A model generated the notes under the pieces. The model made no database searches, was not told the origin of the DNA, and was given only the letters and a program-made list of their open reading frames with translations. The translations under genes were made by a program, and so were the position numbers. A DNA stretch of 64,000 nt, from the sequence record PZ452591.1. One strand, 5' to 3'. Source of the stretch: a phage. Positions 5,083 to 46,138 of the stretch are shown piece by piece; position 1 is the first letter of the stretch; every line of letters begins with the position of its first letter.

Positions 5083-6765
5083 TTAAACCATTACAGTAAA
5101 TCGACCAACTTTCTTCATTTGAAGATGCTGACCATATTCTTGCGGGTCATGGTCTTTATGCGAAATTATAAAAACATTAGTGTTTTTCATTGAATTTATA
5201 ATATTAGCTACACCTTTAATACCTTCGGCATCAAATGACCCATCAAACACTTCATCGAGTATTAATGTACTAATACTAACACCAGATACAATAGAAGCAA
5301 TATCACGCCAAGTAAATAAAAGAGCAATATCAATTCTTGCTTTTTCACCTTCACTAAATGAAGCATAACTAAAATCTTCGCGACCACGGGATTTAATTGT
5401 CTCATTAAATTCTTCATCTAATGTAAACACATAATCCGCTTCCATTATTTTAAGATAATGGTTAATCTGCTTATTAAATAATGGAATGTACTTTTTAATA
5501 ATAGCACCTTTAATGCCAGAATCTTTGAGCATATCAGTCAAAATTCCTCGGTGGTATTTTTCCATTACTAAATTAGTTTTTGTCTTAACAATTTTATCAA
5601 GTTCTTCTTGAAGCAGTGCTATTTCATCAGCATGGTCAATAAACTCAGAAGATGCTTTTTCTATAGCCGCTTTAACTTTTTTAGCTTTATCTACCGTTGT
5701 GATTAGAGATTGCTTTTTATTGCGAATATCATTTGCCAACGACTGCTGGGTTTTAATATTATCTCGGTATTCATCAACAAGAACTTTTAAATTATCACGA
5801 TGTGTTGAAAGCTGTTCAAACGAATGCGTGCATTCAGAAACTTTATCTTTAATTTTAGAAACAACTTTATCACCGGAACTCAATTGTGACAAACAGGTTG
5901 GACATAATCCACCTTCGTGATACATATTAATGACTTTATTATATGAGTCAATTTTTGATTTAATTAAAACTGCTTCTTGACCGATTTTATTAAATGCATC
6001 AGTCGGGTCTTCATCTAAAACAATATTAACTAATCTTTCATTAGCTTCTTCTATTTCCGATTTTAGCGTTCTAGCTTCTTTTGCCAAATCATCATACATA
6101 TTTTGCAGACGAGTAAGGTTGTCACCCGTTAATTTTTTCTGGCGTTCAACGTTATCATTATATATTTTAATTTGTTGGATAATACTATCTTTTTTAACAT
6201 CAAGCACTTGGTTTTGTGAATTTAATTCGCGTATTAGTGCTTTATTAAGCTTATCCATTTCAGCTAATGTTCCTACCTCGAGCAGGTCTTCCACAAGCTT
6301 TCTTCGCGCAGGGGTCGACAAACCCATGAAAGGGGTATACCCTGCTGTACCAAGGACAACAATCTGCTTGAAACTGGCATATGACATTCCGATAAGCTGT
6401 TCAAATTCTGCTTGGAAATCTTTACTGCTGGCAGATTCATTAAGACGTGTACCGTTAACGGTGATTTCGAAAACGTTCGGTTTTTGTCCTCTTTTGATAT
6501 AGTACTTTTTCTCATCATATTCCATCCACAGTTCAACTAAAAGTTCTTTCTTATTTGTGCTGTTTATTAATTGACCTTTCTTTACATCACGAAATGGCTT
6601 GCCAAAAAGCCCAAATGTGATGGCTTCTAACATAGTAGACTTACCACCGCCATTTCGGCCAGTAATAAGAGTTTTTTGAACCTTATCTAATTGAATGTCA
6701 ATAGGATTTCCACCTACTGACATTATATTTTGATACCTAACTCGGTTTAGTTTAAAATTCTTCAC
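5083..6765 (-). CDS. 46: recombination nuclease subunit gp46 (Rad50/SbcC-like ATPase)
   Basis: 560 aa, Walker A GRNGGGKST, long central coiled coil, C-terminal signature/D-loop region; stop overlaps upstream gene. Confidence 0.9.
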   Translation of the reverse strand: MKNFKLNRVRYQNIMSVGGNPIDIQLDKVQKTLITGRNGGGKSTMLEAITFGLFGKPFRDVKKGQLINSTNKKELLVELWMEYDEKKYYIKRGQKPNVFEITVNGTRLNESASSKDFQAEFEQLIGMSYASFKQIVVLGTAGYTPFMGLSTPARRKLVEDLLEVGTLAEMDKLNKALIRELNSQNQVLDVKKDSIIQQIKIYNDNVERQKKLTGDNLTRLQNMYDDLAKEARTLKSEIEEANERLVNIVLDEDPTDAFNKIGQEAVLIKSKIDSYNKVINMYHEGGLCPTCLSQLSSGDKVVSKIKDKVSECTHSFEQLSTHRDNLKVLVDEYRDNIKTQQSLANDIRNKKQSLITTVDKAKKVKAAIEKASSEFIDHADEIALLQEELDKIVKTKTNLVMEKYHRGILTDMLKDSGIKGAIIKKYIPLFNKQINHYLKIMEADYVFTLDEEFNETIKSRGREDFSYASFSEGEKARIDIALLFTWRDIASIVSGVSISTLILDEVFDGSFDAEGIKGVANIINSMKNTNVFIISHKDHDPQEYGQHLQMKKVGRFTVMV

Positions 6766-23600: not shown

Positions 23601-23630
23601 ATAGTACCACAGAGGAACAGTCTTGTAAAC
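23601..23630 (-). promoter_or_regulatory. early (sigma70-type) promoter
   Basis: Minus strand GTTTACA-17 nt-TGGTACTAT; conserved 18-mer TGGTACTATACAACTATC shared with three other sites. Confidence 0.5.
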
Positions 23631-32990: not shown

Positions 32991-33018
32991 GTTATTCTCC
33001 TCTTAACTGATAGAAAAA

Positions 33019-33047
33019 TTATACCACAGTCAAGAGGAAAAGTAAAC
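33019..33047 (-). promoter_or_regulatory. early promoter upstream of regB
   Basis: GTTTACT-17 nt-TGGTATAAT (extended -10 consensus) on minus strand. Confidence 0.6.
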
Positions 33048-35043: not shown

Positions 35044-35079
35044 TTTATTCTCTCTAGGTTTGGGCCATTCCGTGGCGCA

Positions 35080-35111
35080 TGAATTGTCCATTTCTGTATT
35101 TACCCATTACC
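35080..35111. repeat. 32-bp repeat copy A (flanks 157-aa internal-protein gene)
   Basis: TGAATTGTCCATTTCTGTATTTACCCATTACC; 30/32 identical to copy B. Confidence 0.7.
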
Positions 35112-35196
35112 GCACTTGGGCTCGACCTTATTACAGGTTGGCGGGAATCCCTCACAGAATCATGAGGTCCAGGTTGTTCCCATATTTCTTATTTGC

Positions 35197-35670
35197 TTAT
35201 TTGAACGATTTAACGTACTGAATAGAACCTTTACTATTCACGAAAGCGATTTTACCATTTTTATTATACATGGTAGCAGTACGCTGATAGCCATAAGTTT
35301 GCTTACCAGATTGATAACCAACTAATGCAAAATTATCTTCACCCATTTTATTCTGTTTAGCGCGAATGCGTTCATGACCATGTGCCATAAGAACCTTAGC
35401 ATCACCAGTTGCAATGGATCGACGAGTTTTTTCATCTTCAACTGTATTAACAAAGTCGTCAAATGAATCAAATTTAGCATGAGATTTATTATACAGTTTT
35501 CCATCTACTGCATAATTATATCCTTGTACATCCATCTCAACTTCTGTACCATCATCTAATACAGCAGTAATTTTCTGTCCTTTTTTAAATTTCAAAAGAT
35601 CAGTAAAAGATTCAGCAATAATTTGAGAATTAATAGCTGCCTCAGTAATAAATTCTTGATATGTTTTCAT
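35197..35670 (-). CDS. internal-protein-like capsid-targeted protein (157 aa)
   Basis: N-terminal capsid targeting sequence MKTYQEFITE shared with T4 internal proteins. Confidence 0.6.
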   Translation of the reverse strand: MKTYQEFITEAAINSQIIAESFTDLLKFKKGQKITAVLDDGTEVEMDVQGYNYAVDGKLYNKSHAKFDSFDDFVNTVEDEKTRRSIATGDAKVLMAHGHERIRAKQNKMGEDNFALVGYQSGKQTYGYQRTATMYNKNGKIAFVNSKGSIQYVKSFK

Positions 35671-35727
35671 GTATATCCTTTAAATGTAAATAGTTTTATT
35701 CTTTAAGTTTTGGACAATTCATGCGTG

Positions 35728-35759
35728 TGAATTGTCCGTTTCTATATTTACCCATTACC
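35728..35759. repeat. 32-bp repeat copy B
   Basis: TGAATTGTCCGTTTCTATATTTACCCATTACC; here preceded by a perfect 10-bp inverted repeat GGACAATTCA/TGAATTGTCC. Confidence 0.7.
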
Positions 35760-35778
35760 AGGTTCGAACTCGGCTTTA

Positions 35779-36360
35779 TTAAGAATTACCGCGGGCTGCA
35801 TTAGCAACGGCGTAAGCGTACTGAACATTAGCGTCTTTAAACGTACCTTTAGAGGTATCTATTTCTGCCTTAAAGCCGCCTTTAGTCATAACATCGGCAA
35901 ATTCTTTACGGAAAGCCATTGCATCAAGACCTTTCCATGATGATTTATGCTTGGCAAATTCAAGACCGGCAAAGTTAACAGCCTTAGCTAATTTATTATC
36001 AATAACCCATTTACCTGCTTTGGGCACAAACACCGGACCTTTCTGTTTGGAGAACAGTTTTAAATTCCATCGGCGAAGGTCTGCATCGGCTTTAACAAAT
36101 TCTGAGTCTAAATTACTAGCAACAACATCTTGAATATGGGCAAATTTAAGTCCATCAACTTCAATATTTAGATCGTTACGCCAGCGAAGTCCTTCCCATG
36201 CGAAGGCTTTAAAGTCGGAAGCCTTTGTAGCTAAGTACCGTTCAATAGGAGCTGTTTTAGGGTCAAAGCCGTTTCCCGATCGGTAGGTCCACTCATCTTT
36301 GTTAATGCCTTTGGCCTTTACTACAGAAGCTTCGGCAATAAATTCTTGATAGGTTTTCAT
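35779..36360 (-). CDS. ipIII: internal protein III
   Basis: 193 aa, MKTYQEFIAEASVVKAKGINKDEW...; CTS and size fit T4 IPIII, adjacent to e. Confidence 0.7.
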   Translation of the reverse strand: MKTYQEFIAEASVVKAKGINKDEWTYRSGNGFDPKTAPIERYLATKASDFKAFAWEGLRWRNDLNIEVDGLKFAHIQDVVASNLDSEFVKADADLRRWNLKLFSKQKGPVFVPKAGKWVIDNKLAKAVNFAGLEFAKHKSSWKGLDAMAFRKEFADVMTKGGFKAEIDTSKGTFKDANVQYAYAVANAARGNS

Positions 36361-36414: not shown

Positions 36415-36444
36415 ATACTATCACAATTCCAAGAGAAAGTAAAC
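36415..36444 (-). promoter_or_regulatory. early promoter upstream of ipIII
   Basis: GTTTACT-17 nt-TAGTAT on minus strand. Confidence 0.45.
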
Positions 36445-41899: not shown

Positions 41900-41971
41900 A
41901 TGGCCCTGGGTGGAATTGAACCACCATCTGGCGATTATGAGTCGCTTGCTTGAACCTTCCAGCTACAGGGC
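41900..41971 (-). tRNA. tRNA-Ile (anticodon CAU, lysidine type)
   Basis: Anticodon arm GCGACTCATAATCGC as in tRNA-Ile2; no encoded CCA. Confidence 0.7.
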
Positions 41972-41972
41972 C

Positions 41973-42048
41973 TTGGTGCTGATTGACGGAATCGAACCGC
42001 CGACGTCCTCATTACAAGTGAGGTGCTCTACCTACTGAGCTAAATCAG
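41973..42048 (-). tRNA. tRNA-Thr (anticodon UGU)
   Basis: Cloverleaf with anticodon loop CTTGTAA, T-loop TTCGATT, CCA encoded. Confidence 0.85.
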
Positions 42049-42050
42049 CA

Positions 42051-42137
42051 ACGGAGGCGATAGGATTTGAACCTATGAGTCGCCGGAGCGACTGCCGGTT
42101 TTCAAGACCGGTGCATTAAACCACTCTGCCACGCCTC
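42051..42137 (-). tRNA. tRNA-Ser (anticodon UGA)
   Basis: Type II tRNA with long variable arm, anticodon loop CTTGAAA; no encoded CCA. Confidence 0.85.
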
Positions 42138-42139
42138 CA

Positions 42140-42213
42140 GTCTCCGTGGCAGGATTTGAACCTACGACATTCTGCTCCCAAAGCAGACGCTCTACCAAAC
42201 TGAGCTACACGGA
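42140..42213 (-). tRNA. tRNA-Pro (anticodon UGG)
   Basis: Anticodon loop TTTGGGA, D-arm GCTC-AGTTTGGTA-GAGC; no encoded CCA. Confidence 0.85.
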
Positions 42214-42223
42214 GTAAATTAAA

Positions 42224-42297
<74 letters not shown>

Positions 42298-42302
42298 CAA
42301 AT

Positions 42303-42389
42303 TTGGTGCGAGAAGTGGGACTCGAACCCACAAGGAAATCATTCCGCAGCATTTTAAGTGCTGTGCCTTTACCAATTTGACCATTCTCG
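42303..42389 (-). tRNA. tRNA-Leu (anticodon UAA)
   Basis: Type II tRNA, anticodon loop CTTAAAA, long variable arm, CCA encoded. Confidence 0.85.
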
Positions 42390-42390
42390 C

Positions 42391-42463
42391 GCTGGGAATA
42401 AAGGACTCGAACCTTTGCATCCTGGAATCAAAATCCAGTGCCTTACCAACTTGGCTAATTCCC
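42391..42463 (-). tRNA. tRNA-Gln (anticodon UUG)
   Basis: Anticodon loop TTTTGAT, acceptor TGGGAAT/ATTCCCA; no encoded CCA, 1 nt from tRNA-Leu. Confidence 0.85.
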
Positions 42464-42561
42464 AATTATTAACAAAGGCTCTCTAACAAGAACCCTTGAT
42501 GATAGAGGGTATTAATCAGTGCAGTATGAGTTAATAATAACAAATAATTCTTAAAGCATAT

Positions 42562-42849
42562 TTACCATTTATGATAATACATATTTACGATGCATTCAAG
42601 ACCCAAAGGATTCTTGAAAATATCATATTCAAGAGGACCTTTTTCCGTTTCAATAAAGAAATCAAAATTTACTGTATTAAATTTACGGTCTTCCTTCACT
42701 AATTTAACCTGAGAAAATGAACGGTCAATGTAAACCTTTTCAACTTCAAAACATGTTAAAATGCCATAATCATCAATCAAGGCTTTAGCTGCGTCTTGAT
42801 CATATTTATATCCATTTTCAATGGATGATACTTTAGCATAAAGAATCAT
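42562..42849 (-). CDS. hypothetical protein
   Basis: 95-aa ORF downstream of tRNA cluster. Confidence 0.5.
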   Translation of the reverse strand: MILYAKVSSIENGYKYDQDAAKALIDDYGILTCFEVEKVYIDRSFSQVKLVKEDRKFNTVNFDFFIETEKGPLEYDIFKNPLGLECIVNMYYHKW

Positions 42850-42851
42850 TA

Positions 42852-43262
42852 TCAGCCTCTATCAACGATAGTATGAGTATGGGCATTTACGATTTGCCAC
42901 CAGTCGAAACGATTGGAACCATAATCTGGTTTATTTTCATTCTCTTTAATGATATCACGCAGTTTATCTTCTGTTTCAGCATACGCAATTAAATCATCAT
43001 ATCCACCGCAAGGATAATAATTATCACCTGCGAATAAAAGAAAATTTACCTTAGATGGATTTACGTAATAATGGTCTTTAGGATATTTAGTTCCTCTCCA
43101 ATCAGTTACTTCAACATAACGGTAAGAAAATCCATTTTTACTTTCAATCCAACTCCACGCTTCAAAAGGAGTATTAAAAACTTTATCAGGTATTAAATTA
43201 CCTTCAAAATGAGAAGGATTTGCATAATCCCCGGCATAAACATAATATTCGTTAATACTCAT
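42852..43262 (-). CDS. hypothetical protein
   Basis: 136-aa ORF rich in Tyr/Asp. Confidence 0.5.
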   Translation of the reverse strand: MSINEYYVYAGDYANPSHFEGNLIPDKVFNTPFEAWSWIESKNGFSYRYVEVTDWRGTKYPKDHYYVNPSKVNFLLFAGDNYYPCGGYDDLIAYAETEDKLRDIIKENENKPDYGSNRFDWWQIVNAHTHTIVDRG

Positions 43263-43448
43263 TTATTCACCTTTAGAAATTTTATCCATAACAATAGCAA
43301 TTAAACCAATTAAAAATGCTACTACAAGTGAAAACACATTTTCTGCTGTAGTCAATAATCCACATATAAATCCAACAAACATTGAAAAACTAAAAGCGGA
43401 AGCAGAAATTGCAATAGCAACATTTCGAATTAATTCACAACGTTTCAT
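43263..43448 (-). CDS. small membrane protein
   Basis: 61 aa with two hydrophobic helices; own promoter-hairpin unit upstream. Confidence 0.45.
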   Translation of the reverse strand: MKRCELIRNVAIAISASAFSFSMFVGFICGLLTTAENVFSLVVAFLIGLIAIVMDKISKGE

Positions 43449-43467
43449 TTTATTCTCCTCAGTAGTA

Positions 43468-43495
43468 GATAGGGTAATAGTATCACTACCCTATC
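43468..43495. repeat. inverted repeat (hairpin) in ipI-locus cassette 1
   Basis: GATAGGGTA-atagtatcac-TACCCTATC, 9-bp perfect stem. Confidence 0.7.
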
Positions 43496-43506
43496 TAAAA
43501 GTAAAC
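43477..43506 (-). promoter_or_regulatory. early promoter with embedded hairpin (ipI-locus cassette 1)
   Basis: GTTTAC then 9-bp stem flanking GTGATACTAT; -10 TACTAT sits in the loop. Confidence 0.5.
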
Positions 43507-43740
43507 TTATTTTTTACGAAAAATTGATTTATTTTCTGCTGCCCATTTTTCAATAACTGCAGCAGGACCAGTAACAACAATTTTATCACCGTAATCTTCT
43601 GCGGCGAGTTGACCGAAATTATCTAATGCATCACGAAGAACTCCATGAGGCATTTCACCCATTTTATCTTTCTTGCCAGTGTAAATAAACTCAACTTTTA
43701 CATCAGCAGTTTCAGCAATAAATTCTTGGTAAGTTTTCAT
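43507..43740 (-). CDS. internal-protein-like capsid-targeted protein (77 aa)
   Basis: ATG at 43740 gives MKTYQEFIAETADVK... with canonical CTS; track ORF adds 4 residues. Confidence 0.6.
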   Translation of the reverse strand: MKTYQEFIAETADVKVEFIYTGKKDKMGEMPHGVLRDALDNFGQLAAEDYGDKIVVTGPAAVIEKWAAENKSIFRKK

Positions 43741-43766
43741 TTTGATTTCCATTTGGTTTTGTTTTG

Positions 43767-43798
43767 ATAGGGTAATAGTATCACAACTAAAACCCTAT
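43767..43798. repeat. inverted repeat (hairpin) in ipI-locus cassette 2
   Basis: ATAGGGT-(18 nt incl. atagtatcac)-ACCCTAT, 7-bp stem. Confidence 0.6.
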
Positions 43799-43804
43799 GT
43801 AAAC
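43775..43804 (-). promoter_or_regulatory. early promoter with embedded hairpin (ipI-locus cassette 2)
   Basis: GTTTACA-17 nt-TACTAT; 7-bp inverted repeat ATAGGGT/ACCCTAT around -10. Confidence 0.5.
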
Positions 43805-43816
43805 AACTTTGTGAAA

Positions 43817-44074
43817 TTATTTTAAATCTTCTAATCGTTTCTTCATCTTAGAACCATTTTTAGCAATTTCTCCTGCATCGGAGCATAATGCTAAAAGTGC
43901 TTTAACTTTAGTTTGGTCTCCTTTAAAAGATGAAGGATCGACCGCAGCAGCAAGTTCTTTAATACGAGAGAAAAGACGCTCAGCTTCAGCTAAAGCCATT
44001 CCAAGCTTTACTTCCATACCGTGGGAAGATTCAGTGATAGTAGTTTTTGTAGCAAACTCTTTGAAAGTTTTCAT
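43817..44074 (-). CDS. internal-protein-like protein with variant targeting sequence (85 aa)
   Basis: Starts MKTFKEFATKTTITE, a variant of the MKTYQEFIAE CTS. Confidence 0.5.
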   Translation of the reverse strand: MKTFKEFATKTTITESSHGMEVKLGMALAEAERLFSRIKELAAAVDPSSFKGDQTKVKALLALCSDAGEIAKNGSKMKKRLEDLK

Positions 44075-44096
44075 TTTTATTTTCCTAATTAATTTT

Positions 44097-44124
44097 GATG
44101 AGGTAATAGTATCACTACCTCATC
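44097..44124. repeat. inverted repeat (hairpin) in ipI-locus cassette 3
   Basis: GATGAGGTA-atagtatcac-TACCTCATC; stem differs from cassette 1 by compensatory changes. Confidence 0.7.
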
Positions 44125-44135
44125 AGTATGTAAAC
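44106..44135 (-). promoter_or_regulatory. early promoter with embedded hairpin (ipI-locus cassette 3)
   Basis: GTTTACA-17 nt-TACTAT; 9-bp inverted repeat GATGAGGTA/TACCTCATC around -10. Confidence 0.5.
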
Positions 44136-44147
44136 AACTTTGTGAAA

Positions 44148-44832
<685 letters not shown>

Positions 44833-44833
<1 letters not shown>

Positions 44834-45558
44834 TATAGTACCTTTAGTGTATTTTTAATTTTAGAAAAAAGTTCTTCAAGAGAACCATCGTTTGTAATTA
44901 CTAAATCGCCATCACGAATTGGCAATCCAGCTTCTGTAATATGTGTATCATTGGATTTTTGACCAGGACGAACTACATGAATTACTGTAGCACCCATCGC
45001 CCTAGCCGCATCCATTTCATGATCTTGACGGGTATCAGGAACGATATAATAATCATAACCTGAGTTAAATTTATCAAGATAATCTAAAGCAAATAATTTT
45101 ACCCAGTACATGCGGTCGAAGTTATTAACAATCAAATCCGTACCTAGGGCTTGCATCAGACGACGGACTGACCATTGATCTTCAATATTATTTATAACGT
45201 CAGTAATTTTGTTAAATGCTACGAAATTAACTGATTCTTTTCCTTCGTCATCAAAAACAAACACACCTTTAATTGGGCTTTTACCATTAAGATAGCAAAA
45301 TGCTTGTTCCATAATCGTGATTACTTCTAATTTAGTCAGATTTAAATTAGTCTCACGATCATAGTCAATTCCTTCAAACTCTTTACGAGTTAAGCAAGGA
45401 TAGTCGGTGTTTGCTGCAAATACTCCCCATGCATAAGCCAATGCATCCTTAATAGGACCAGCAAGTTGGTATTTAACTGCAGAATAATTACTCATGATAA
45501 AATCAGCAGTAGTATCTTTTCCACTACGCTTTACACCGCTTAAAAAGATTAGTTTCAT
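44833..45558 (-). CDS. 1: deoxynucleoside monophosphate kinase
   Basis: ATG at 45558 after SD GAGGAG gives 241 aa, MKLIFLSGVKRSGKDT P-loop. Confidence 0.85.
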
Positions 45559-45607
45559 GTGTTTCTCCTCAAATTTAATTAAGATTATAACACACAAAAC
45601 TGAAGCA

Positions 45608-46138
45608 TTAAACTTCTGCTATAATTTTACCATCTTTTTCTACTTGAAAATAGGTGTAAGGAATCGTTGCTGTACATACTAAAGCCGGGTCTGAATCTTC
45701 CGTGTAGCTAAATTCTACTTCAGACAGGTCAGAAACCCAAGGCTTATAAAAATTTATTGACATCACGATTTCAGTTTTGCTATTATCTAAGATGTAAAGC
45801 GTAATGTATTCAGGACCTGTTTTTTGGGCAGTATTTTCACCTGTAAGATAGTTGCTAGTTCCTAGCATCCATTCATACATTCCTATCCATGACTTAAGTT
45901 CTTCATCAACTATAAATCTCACGATGAGTGGATCGTACTCAAATGTAGCACCTGGACGTTGTGCTCGACCAAGTCCAAACGGCCCAGTCACGGTATCAGT
46001 AACAGGTATTCTAATTCCTGGAATAGGAACTGACTGAGCATTTAAAGTAAAAGCAGATGTAGTATTACTATGTGGTATTGATACTACAAAGTTAGTTGTA
46101 TTTGCTTGGTTAAAAATTTGTTGCAGAGCTTGCGACAT
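45608..46138 (-). CDS. 3: tail completion / sheath stabiliser gp3
   Basis: ATG at 46138 after SD GAGGAA gives 176 aa; T4 synteny 1-3-2-4. Confidence 0.8.
   Translation of the reverse strand: MSQALQQIFNQANTTNFVVSIPHSNTTSAFTLNAQSVPIPGIRIPVTDTVTGPFGLGRAQRPGATFEYDPLIVRFIVDEELKSWIGMYEWMLGTSNYLTGENTAQKTGPEYITLYILDNSKTEIVMSINFYKPWVSDLSEVEFSYTEDSDPALVCTATIPYTYFQVEKDGKIIAEV

Follow-up and report, generated by a model that had tools for sequence, protein, structure and literature searches.

Early promoter and inverted-repeat cassettes flanking internal protein genes at the ipI locus of a T6-like phage

Results

Organization of the ipI locus

The stretch of DNA analyzed here, 64,000 nt in length and referred to as the window, belongs to a T6-like Tequatrovirus and shows 97.8% identity to T6 and 97.3% identity to PST at the ipI locus. 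Genes of this locus are located on the minus strand in the order 57B (Acb1), cassette, ipV, cassette, ipVI, cassette and trna.4. A preliminary description of this DNA had reported three tandem units composed of a promoter, a hairpin and a small gene; all three promoter-hairpin units were found on the minus strand, one in each intergenic gap. Features of the locus, and the early promoter of a second internal protein (IP) locus, are as follows.

44148..44606, minus strand: gene 57B (Acb1, anti-CBASS), conserved left border of the ipI locus; Pfam PF23474 Acb1, E 2.7e-60; gp57B in PST and T4
44075..44147, minus strand: cassette 3 (57B-ipV gap); A/T-rich upstream stretch; -35 GTTTAC at 44130-44135; SD AGGAAA
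44106-44111, minus strand: -10 of cassette 3, extended (TGaTACTAT); arms 44116-44125 / 44096-44105; predicted start 44099
43817..44074, minus strand: ipV (ip5), 85-aa internal head protein; leader MKTFKEF...ITE, with S after the putative cleavage point
43741..43816, minus strand: cassette 2 (ipV-ipVI gap); -35 at 43799-43804; -10 at 43775-43780; predicted start 43768
43786-43806 / 43759-43779, minus strand: arms of the cassette 2 hairpin, imperfect and shifted in register
43507..43740, minus strand: ipVI, 77-aa internal protein; leader MKTYQEFIAE, with T after the putative cleavage point
43449..43506, minus strand: cassette 1 (ipVI-trna.4 gap); -35 at 43501-43506, immediately 3' of the ipVI stop codon; SD GAGGAG
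43477-43482, minus strand: -10 of cassette 1; arms 43487-43497 / 43466-43476; predicted start 43470
43263..43448, minus strand: trna.4, 61-aa predicted membrane protein, conserved right border of the IP array; Trna.4 in T4 and PST; phrog_1692
36415..36444, minus strand: ipIII early promoter (second IP locus), AATTGTGA [TAGTATAT] TCACAGTT; -10 in the loop; z -2.47

A repeat search detected the cassettes as a family of 71-nt direct repeats with three copies (43464-43534, 43762-43832 and 44093-44163) and 61-86% identity. The repeat extends into the coding ends of the upstream genes: a perfect 33-nt repeat at 44127-44159 and 43796-43828 spans the last codons (DLK and stop) of both 57B and ipV.

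The ipV and ipVI proteins

Products of ipV and ipVI had been proposed as candidate new internal proteins; however, both already have names, Ip5/IpV and IpVI. The 85-aa protein is 100% identical to RB15 Ip5 (GenBank Z35082), is called IpV in PST and matched the internal head protein family phrog_3499 over its full length (E 1e-49). Similarly, the ipVI product gave a full-length match to the internal protein family phrog_8111 (E 1e-52) and is annotated as IpVI in PST and as "internal virion protein" in the T6 RefSeq entry. An alternative upstream ATG would lengthen its 77-aa ORF to 81 aa; in PST, the 77-aa form is annotated. Both proteins show the hallmarks of IPs, i.e., small size, location at an IP locus and an N-terminal capsid-targeting leader, MKT(Y/F)xEF, ending at a putative prohead-protease site, (I/L)-x-E. 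Cleavage is predicted after MKTFKEFATKTTITE and before S in IpV, and between MKTYQEFIAE and T in IpVI. Each of the T4 proteins Ip1, Ip2 and Ip3 blocks a different GmrSD-type restriction enzyme (PMC12373910).

Early promoters

The pattern GTTTAC-N(16-20)-TACTAT matched the window 7 times, whereas 0.07 matches were expected. In each cassette, it takes the form GTTTAC-N18-TACTAT with an extended -10 TG. The hexamer TACTAT, previously given as a putative -10, is thus present, and is better described as part of the extended -10 TGaTACTAT, the standard form in T4 early promoters. The arrangement UP/-35/TGn/-10 has been reported as the architecture of T4 early promoters and is shared by the cassette promoters. 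The predicted start is an A located approximately 7 nt past the -10, within a conserved ATCAA (44099, 43768 and 43470 in cassettes 3, 2 and 1). In T4, the corresponding predicted starts would be at approximately 73,903 (ipI) and 73,536 (trna.4) on the minus strand. Judging from these sequences, all three cassettes would have promoter activity; they may also set RNA 3' ends.

Inverted repeats and predicted hairpins

In 3 of 3 cassettes, the -10 is either flanked by or included in the arms of an inverted repeat. Those of cassette 1 (TAGATAGGGTA/TACCCTATCTA, 43466-43476 / 43487-43497) and cassette 3 (TGATGAGGTA/TACCTCATCA, 44096-44105 / 44116-44125) are perfect, with 10 nt between the arms. Cassette 2 has a longer, imperfect hairpin (TTGTTTACATAGGGTTTTAGT / ACTATTACCCTATCAAAACAA, 43759-43779 / 43786-43806; 81% complementary) in a different register, in which the 5' arm abuts the -35 and the -10 is partly paired. 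RNA folding gave -19.5 kcal/mol (z -3.35), -18.1 kcal/mol (z -3.78) and -17.4 kcal/mol (z -3.87) for cassettes 1, 2 and 3, respectively, and z of -4.1 to -5.2 when the spacer and leader alone were shuffled. Nothing comparable was seen at 5 of 9 other strong early promoters in the window (z -0.3 to +0.5). DNA folding of the cassettes gave z of -2.2 to -2.6. The segment between the arms had been regarded as a constant loop; in RNA, it is partly paired (G·U, U-A, G·U), and what remains is a 4-nt AUAC loop on a stem of 13-14 bp in cassettes 1 and 3. The stem of cassette 2 has 17 pairs interrupted by three internal loops.

As had been suggested, a transcript from the embedded promoter would begin inside the 3' arm. 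Because the predicted start lies in the last 3 nt of this arm, formation of the full hairpin would be limited to read-through RNA and single-stranded DNA.

A stable hairpin located soon after a stop codon resembles an intrinsic terminator. Unlike intrinsic terminators, the cassette stems are not followed by a U-tract (AAAATTAATT, AAAACAAAAC, CTACTGAGG), their tails being A-rich, and a terminator scan of 42000-46000 gave no site at the three cassettes. Both observations make classical intrinsic termination doubtful. A coupling to RNA processing had been considered as well. An RNase III site requires roughly two turns (~20 bp or more) of double-stranded RNA, and we rejected an RNase III processing site, which is unlikely with stems of this length (13-14 bp, or 17 pairs with three internal loops). 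A search of 43200-44300 against Rfam found no family; the one match, snoZ169, was a sub-threshold chance match (22 bits vs a gathering score of 55).

Matching of the two arms

Cassettes 1 and 3 differ at two paired positions (A-T/G-C vs G-C/A-T). These are true double changes, and the earlier report of compensatory stem changes was therefore correct. We found that native 5' and 3' halves fold together better than swapped halves (-12.95 vs -8.2 kcal/mol, 0 of 10,000 permutations, not fully corrected for ancestry). The same was observed for 15 dissimilar representatives (native -8.08 vs swapped -4.56 +/- 0.64 kcal/mol; 0 of 20,000 permutations, again with incomplete correction for ancestry). The two arms match beyond chance, and they do so with at least 8 distinct stem sequences and registers across cassettes. 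Within helices, G·T oppositions on the sense strand outnumbered A·C by 22 to 5 (p = 0.0015, not fully ancestry-corrected), an excess which points to a hairpin in sense-strand RNA. At the related locus L137, the 5' arm is ATGGGGT and its partner, the 3' arm, is ACCTCAT; a G-C pair is found there in place of the A·C clash expected of a hybrid between cassettes 2 and 3. Most probably, cassettes 1 and 3 came to differ in a compensatory manner because pairing was kept as the arms drifted and as crossovers in the core re-assorted them.

On the other hand, covariation in fixed columns, analyzed for 25 distinct cassettes in two registers, was no better than in column shuffles (59.1% paired vs 57.1% shuffled, a level reached by 69 of 500 shuffles; covariation score 0.157 vs 0.163), and register 0 was favored by the slide control only. 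The lack of significance is explained by the composition of the 3' arm, most of which is conserved as promoter or initial-transcribed sequence, and by the changing register of the 5' arm. For this reason, register-free tests (native vs swapped halves) were used instead. Whether the arms vary independently in related genomes, which the preliminary description had named as a decisive point, thus has a divided answer: their matching exceeds chance, but some relatives have mismatched recombinant arms and column-wise covariation is null. Mismatched or decayed stems were seen in L128 and L137, and RB15 has two decayed stems. Besides, among 15 dissimilar promoters of the ipI locus, 8 show at most a slight hairpin around the -10, or none. 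Together with the decayed RB15 stems, these promoters indicate that the stem is dispensable.

Gain and loss of IP genes in relatives

The 36 related loci contain 0-4 IP genes each, and trna.4 was found in 34 of them. A strict cassette of its own was present for 20 of 60 IP genes, suggesting that IP genes can also be gained without a cassette. The cassette 3 sequence is found, identical, upstream of T4 ipI, and the T4 trna.4 cassette consists of the 5' half of cassette 2 and the 3' half of cassette 1. Locus L144 corresponds to the window minus ipV, with the junction inside the 33-nt repeat, and three further types of hybrid, as well as an internal duplication, are found in L137 and L128. In the hybrids, the junctions fall in the invariant core around the -10, between the arms. 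The idea that the unit is a recombination module, which is also a published hypothesis, is backed by these hybrids and by the varying number of IP genes.

Discussion

Earlier descriptions and related elements

The abstract of a 1994 paper by Repoila, Tetart, Bouet and Krisch reportedly describes a T4 early promoter with an overlapping inverted repeat flanking IP ORFs, a shared N-terminal leader and shuffling of IP genes. In later papers, Repoila et al. 1994 (EMBO J 13:4181) are credited with PeSL-like sequences at two T-even IP loci (PMC2839356; PMC4122927), elements that, according to Arbiol 2010 (PMC2839356), are built on T4 early promoters and have AT-rich stem-loops. As far as these accounts of the 1994 work go, its cassettes and those of the window are alike in locus (57B to trna.4), Ip5, a ~70-bp repeat, an early promoter and an overlapping inverted repeat; nothing essential differs, and the window represents one more T6/PST-like arrangement (ipV-ipVI). 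The RB15 entry Z35082, which encodes Ip5/Ip9/Ip7/Ip8, is 100% identical to cassette 3 over 82 nt. Sequences matching the cassettes occur in ~760 phage records. Also, the record of phage SA20RB annotates the cassette sites as an overlapping T4 early promoter and rho-independent terminator (TransTermHP, WebGeSTer). Since the literature and GenBank already contain the element, its locus, the role proposed for it and both proteins, our observation is a correct rediscovery of something already known and by itself adds little; the interpretation in the preliminary description is partly supported. New points are modest. Over the 1994 work, we add the matching of arms relative to swapped halves and the G·T/A·C strand asymmetry, both of which are evidence that the stem is maintained at the level of sense-strand RNA, as well as register shifts, mapped hybrid junctions and negative findings for masking of the RBS and for intrinsic termination.

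Similar to the cassettes are PeSLs, promoter-early stem-loops of RB49/phi1, PST/T4 and nt-1/KVP40 (Arbiol 2010, PMC2839356; Comeau 2014, PMC4122927). Both are intergenic and have an early promoter preceded by an A/T-rich region, a stem-loop that is located between the promoter boxes or overlaps the -10, and an SD with a start codon; both flank small accessory genes in hyperplastic regions, and for both a combined role as promoter, terminator and recombination linker has been proposed. The cassettes also fit the PST/T4 PeSL promoter consensus, TTTACW-N17-TAYWAT (PMC4122927). Unlike RB49 PeSLs, they have a promoter of the T4 early type (GTTTAC / TACTAT) rather than a near-perfect sigma-70 consensus, and their stems (GATAGGGTA, GATGAGGTA) are richer in AT and have no polyG/polyC runs. 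Arbiol 2010 (PMC2839356) referred to the T-even IP elements as analogs, not homologs, of RB49 PeSLs. Stem-loops of the latter lowered lacZ expression like a strong terminator, and mini-circles were detected by inverse PCR (PMC2839356; PMC4122927); these two properties have been demonstrated only in RB49. Another similar case is that of T4 genes e, soc, 49 and I-TevI, in which a late promoter lies inside an RNA helix and translation is controlled in a promoter-dependent manner (PMC3014915). There, as in the cassettes, the promoter is in the 5' strand of the helix, and transcripts initiated upstream and locally fold differently. However, these promoters are late and the helix hides the SD/AUG, whereas the cassettes are early and their helix ends 17-28 nt before the AUG.

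Proposed role of the cassettes

We consider it probable that the cassettes are composite intergenic units of the T-even ipI locus, "PeSL-like" combinations of early promoter and inverted repeat, which apparently have three jobs. As strong T4-type early promoters, they would give ipV, ipVI and trna.4 their own host sigma-70 start immediately after infection, predicted from the consensus to be at the A in the conserved ATCAA. Because the spacer can pair with the first bases to be transcribed, RNA initiated upstream would fold and the cassette's own transcript would not. The resulting read-through hairpin (13-17 bp, 11-25 nt past the upstream stop codon) may be a transcript-boundary element, either an attenuator or a protector of the 3' end of the upstream message, that insulates each module. 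Structure at the RNA level is supported at the cassettes; the boundary function is suggested by analogy, with RB49 PeSL reporter assays as the model. Finally, a conserved block of ~100 bp, made up of the last codons, the promoter, the invariant core GTGATACTATTACC, the leader, the SD and the codons of the capsid-targeting leader, is the homology by which T4 recombination adds, deletes and swaps IP genes, as shown by comparison of the related loci. The cassettes are likely a device by which T-even phages exchange injected counter-defense genes while each is kept expressed. The phage-host arms race has a hot spot in the ipI locus, with its neighboring gene 57B being the anti-CBASS protein Acb1, and swapping of IP genes matters for host-range evolution and phage engineering.

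Several other explanations of the inverted repeat should be considered. Inverted repeats straddling a -10 are typical of operators, and the mechanism by which T4 early promoters are shut off is not fully understood (PMC3014915), so that a dimeric phage or host repressor might bind the palindrome over the promoter and switch off early IP transcription. We rejected this model, which appears extremely improbable, on the basis of compensatory half-site changes and variable spacing. Within one genome, the half-sites of different cassettes are distinguished by symmetric changes of the compensatory type, which keep pairing and not a recognition sequence; their spacing differs by ~8 bp in cassette 2, and relatives have stems of unrelated sequence. 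A single protein could not recognize every one of these palindromes. It is also very unlikely that read-through RNA hides the RBS and that only the cassette's own transcript is translated. Such control is established in T4 for late promoters (PMC3014915), and similar pairing is seen at early promoters: in the trna.4 cassette of distant relatives (L128 at 5572, L135 at 4695, L142 and L146), an outer stem pairs with the SD, and at the window early promoters 23630 and 33047, the spacer is complementary to the downstream SD (z -5.0 and -6.4). In the three cassettes of the window, however, the stem ends well short of the AUG (by the 17-28 nt noted above), and the unpaired probability of the SD-AUG region is about equal in read-through and own-promoter transcripts (0.79/0.83, 0.66/0.56 and 0.62/0.76). 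With predicted RBS accessibility alike in both transcript forms, promoter choice is not coupled to translation in this phage, and we rejected masking of the RBS by the hairpin for this phage on these folding predictions.

The remaining two explanations deny the RNA hairpin a role of its own. Pairing may be a mutational by-product, arising for example by template switching at quasi-palindromes and gene conversion between cassettes, in which case only the promoter and homology would matter. Templated mutation of quasi-palindromes is well documented in T4, and persistence of decayed or mismatched stems in L128, L137 and RB15, the 8 of 15 dissimilar promoters without a stem and the non-significant column-wise covariation are all consistent with this possibility. 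Still, it seems quite unlikely, because complementary arms are found again and again, in at least 8 sequences and registers as well as at the ipIII promoter, which is unrelated, native halves beat swapped ones in 20,000 permutations, and the sense-strand G·T excess is not predicted by templated mutation, which yields perfect Watson-Crick copies. Alternatively, the inverted repeat could act in DNA only, as a recombination site in single-stranded or cruciform DNA (e.g., the target of a structure- or sequence-specific recombination protein), with the RNA hairpin being incidental. Crossovers of hybrid cassettes in the core between the arms, the DNA folding (z -2.2 to -2.6) and the presence of GGGC...GCCC in stems of relatives favor this view; Arbiol 2010 (PMC2839356) speculated about a DNA-binding protein at PeSL stems and cited T4 deletions at GGGC/GCCC repeats. 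We nevertheless regard it as unlikely, since the 22 to 5 asymmetry between G·T and A·C is unexpected if the structure must form on both strands. Besides, arms of 9-11 bp with a 10-nt loop extrude cruciforms poorly, and the junctions match the longest perfect identity, where ordinary homologous recombination would take place in any case.

Returning to a structure kept in RNA, we tentatively propose, as a possibility that is open to considerable doubt, that selection maintains the inverted repeat as a sense-strand RNA structure and not merely as DNA homology, and that in many T4-type early promoters the spacer pairs, as the 5' strand of a helix, with the leader or SD, so that the fate of a message is set by its promoter of origin. 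If so, messages would meet a boundary or 3' end protection at IP cassettes and would be translationally silent at promoters like 23630 and 33047. The late-promoter cases (e, soc, 49 and I-TevI) would then be extended to a genome-wide rule for early promoters, and the PeSL-like stem would gain a defined RNA role without the need of a U-tract. At the second IP locus of the window, the ipIII promoter has the same design as the ipI cassettes, with an unrelated stem sequence.

Organization of the ipI locus

Region 42500-45600 of the window shared 97.8% identity with phage T6 and 97.3% with Yersinia phage PST, and was matched by 890 Tequatrovirus-like records. Every gene of the region lies on the minus strand, in the order gene 1 (dNMP kinase), 57A, 57B, an 85-aa ORF, a 77-aa ORF, a 61-aa membrane protein, two more small ORFs and the tRNA cluster. 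The internal protein (IP) genes and their neighbors are as follows.

44148-44606, minus strand: 57B (Pfam Acb1)
43817-44074, minus strand: ipV, 85-aa ORF (named ipV in the PST annotation)
43507-43740, minus strand: ipVI, 77-aa ORF (named ipVI in the PST annotation)
43263-43448, minus strand: trna.4, 61-aa membrane protein (named tRNA.4 in the PST annotation)

The position of these IP genes is occupied by ipI in T4. Although the preliminary description proposed the two small genes as new internal protein candidates, they are not new, because both proteins matched PHROG internal-protein families over their full length and have an (I/L)-x-E site in their targeting leader. In addition to their PST names, the T6 RefSeq record lists them as “internal head protein” (85 aa) and “internal virion protein” (77 aa), and Ip5 of phage RB15 (GenBank Z35082) is identical to the 85-aa protein. 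The acb1 gene (57B, anti-CBASS; 44148-44606) directly adjoins this injected-protein array (43507-44074); in T4, the members of the array are anti-restriction factors. Gene and array make up a small counter-defence island bordered by the tRNA cluster (41901-42464).

Three promoter cassettes and their previous description

A repeat search detected a family of three 71-nt direct repeats, at 43464-43534 (cassette 1), 43762-43832 (cassette 2) and 44093-44163 (cassette 3). Each copy contains GTTTAC, an 18-nt spacer with TGa at its end, and TACTAT, a pattern found 7 times in the window versus 0.07 expected. This arrangement fits the UP/-35/TGn/-10 form reported for T4 early promoters, and judging from this consensus the cassettes probably serve as promoters. 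Perfect arms separated by 10 nt were present in cassette 1 (11 nt) and cassette 3 (10 nt), and RNA folding of the three units gave -19.5, -18.1 and -17.4 kcal/mol (z of -3.35, -3.78 and -3.87, or -4.1 to -5.2 when the shuffle was confined to spacer and leader). The preliminary description was confirmed except in two details: cassette 2 uses another pairing register, with a 21-nt imperfect arm, the 5' arm adjoining the -35 and part of the -10 paired, and in the RNA form the supposed loop shrinks to four bases by further pairing. A 33-nt perfect direct repeat (44127-44159 and 43796-43828) also takes in the coding ends of 57B and ipV (last three codons plus stop, DLK*); one of these two C-termini may have been derived from the other via cassette recombination.

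The three-cassette finding is a correct reading of an element that is already known. In their passages on IP loci, Arbiol et al. 2010 (PMC2839356) describe elements that are built on T4 early promoters, have weaker and AT-rich stem-loops and may explain IP shuffling, crediting Repoila et al. 1994 with the earlier sighting; the corresponding passage of Comeau et al. 2014 (PMC4122927) gives the same account. The RB15 record (“Ip5, Ip9, Ip7, Ip8”, with 57B and tRNA.4 at the ends) includes a stretch 100% identical to cassette 3, and in phage SA20RB homologous sites flanking ipI carry annotations for a T4 early promoter and a rho-independent terminator that overlap.

Arm pairing across relatives

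We gathered 36 ipI loci from IMG/VR via 57B and extracted all promoters of the GTTTAC type lying between 57B and trna.4. The 37 distinct cassettes had at least 8 stem sequences in several registers, for example GATGAGGTA/TACCTCATC, GATAGGGTA/TACCCTATC, GGGCT.TAGTG/TACTA.AGCCC, AGGTCTATAG/CTATAGACCT, AGGGCTAT/ATAGCCCT, GGGTTAT/ATAACCC and GATGATGGTG/TACTATCATC. Most of the 3' arm consists of conserved start-region sequence (CCTATCAA), and the position of the 5' arm moves. Native 5' and 3' halves folded at -12.95 versus -8.2 kcal/mol when swapped (0 of 10,000 permutations); similarly, 15 dissimilar representatives restricted to -35 to +14 gave -8.08 versus -4.56 ± 0.64 (0 of 20,000). However, a fixed-column covariation test on 25 cassettes showed no improvement over shuffles, 8 of the 15 representatives had almost no stem, or none, around the -10, and two stems of RB15 had decayed. 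Arm pairing is therefore favoured yet not obligatory. Stems of several trna.4 cassettes (L115, L120-L125, L128, L131, L132 and L135-L140, all related loci) contain GGGC...GCCC, an inverted motif that, in a passage of PMC2839356, is tied to spontaneous T4 deletions by Mosig et al. 1998.

Recombination at the locus

Comparative data, together with the published model, support the suggestion that the unit is a recombination module. Between 57B and trna.4, 34 loci carried 0 to 4 IP genes. L144 equals the window minus ipV, with the junction within the 33-nt repeat; in the T4 trna.4 cassette, the 5' half is that of cassette 2 and the 3' half that of cassette 1; L137 has hybrids of cassette 2-5'/cassette 3-3' and cassette 1-5'/cassette 3-3'; and L128 has one further hybrid. 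Every junction lay in or beside the invariant core GTGATACTATTACC. For the cassette 2/3 hybrid of L137, the arms of its parents predict an A·C clash, but the hybrid has G-C there and keeps a G·U. L128 (IMG/VR 2706796299) also has, at 5177-5260, a tandem duplication of GATACTATTACCTCATCAA (-10 plus 3' arm) with mismatched arms, an apparent remnant of unequal crossing-over in the cassette core. Only 20 of 60 IP genes had a strict cassette of their own. Other joints must be in use as well, either the shared leader codons or direct contact with the upstream gene.

Nature and possible functions of the hairpin

For 284 distinct early-promoter units from all retrieved loci, we took the best spacer-leader helix of each, with equal scores for G·T and A·C and with fixed promoter-motif positions left out. 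Among interior non-Watson-Crick positions, 22 distinct contexts had G·T and 5 had A·C (p = 0.0015, the contexts being not fully independent). Since a structure required in both DNA strands would give no such bias, this fits a hairpin of sense polarity, in RNA or the non-template strand, and is supportive rather than proof. Together, folding, arm matching and G·T bias support an RNA hairpin at the cassettes.

With regard to function, several roles are unlikely. The stems fall short of the length of a typical RNase III site. No U-tract follows the stems, and a terminator scan called nothing at the cassettes. An operator was ruled out by symmetric changes and variable half-site spacing. Masking of the ribosome-binding site, as in T4 e, soc, 49 and I-TevI, probably does not apply to the three window cassettes, where the SD-AUG region showed similar openness whether the transcript was a read-through or came from the cassette's own promoter; in more distant relatives, the outer stem of the trna.4 cassette does pair with the SD. 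By analogy with reporter work on the RB49 PeSL (promoter-early stem-loop), we infer that the hairpin may be a boundary or 3' end protector.

In two strong early promoters elsewhere in the window, at 23601-23630 and 33018-33047 (minus strand), the spacer is complementary to the downstream gene's Shine-Dalgarno region (TGTTCCTC/GGAGGAACA and TTTTCCTCTTGACTG/CAGTTAAGAGGAGAA; z of -5.0 and -6.4). The SD would be masked on upstream RNA and free on the own transcript, a logic shared with e, soc and 49 except that the promoters here are early.

Second internal protein locus

The early promoter of ipIII (35779-36360), at 36415-36444 (minus strand), follows the design of the ipI cassettes in placing its -10 TAGTAT in the loop, but its stem, AATTGTGA/TCACAGTT (z of -2.5), is unrelated to theirs. 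At the ipII position, a 157-aa IP gene (35197-35670, minus strand) beginning MKTYQEFITEAA is flanked by a 59-nt direct repeat (35075-35133 and 35723-35781, 78% identity) that differs from the ipI repeat. It holds a GGACAATTCA...TGAATTGTCC hairpin without an early promoter, and appears to be another type of shuffling joint.
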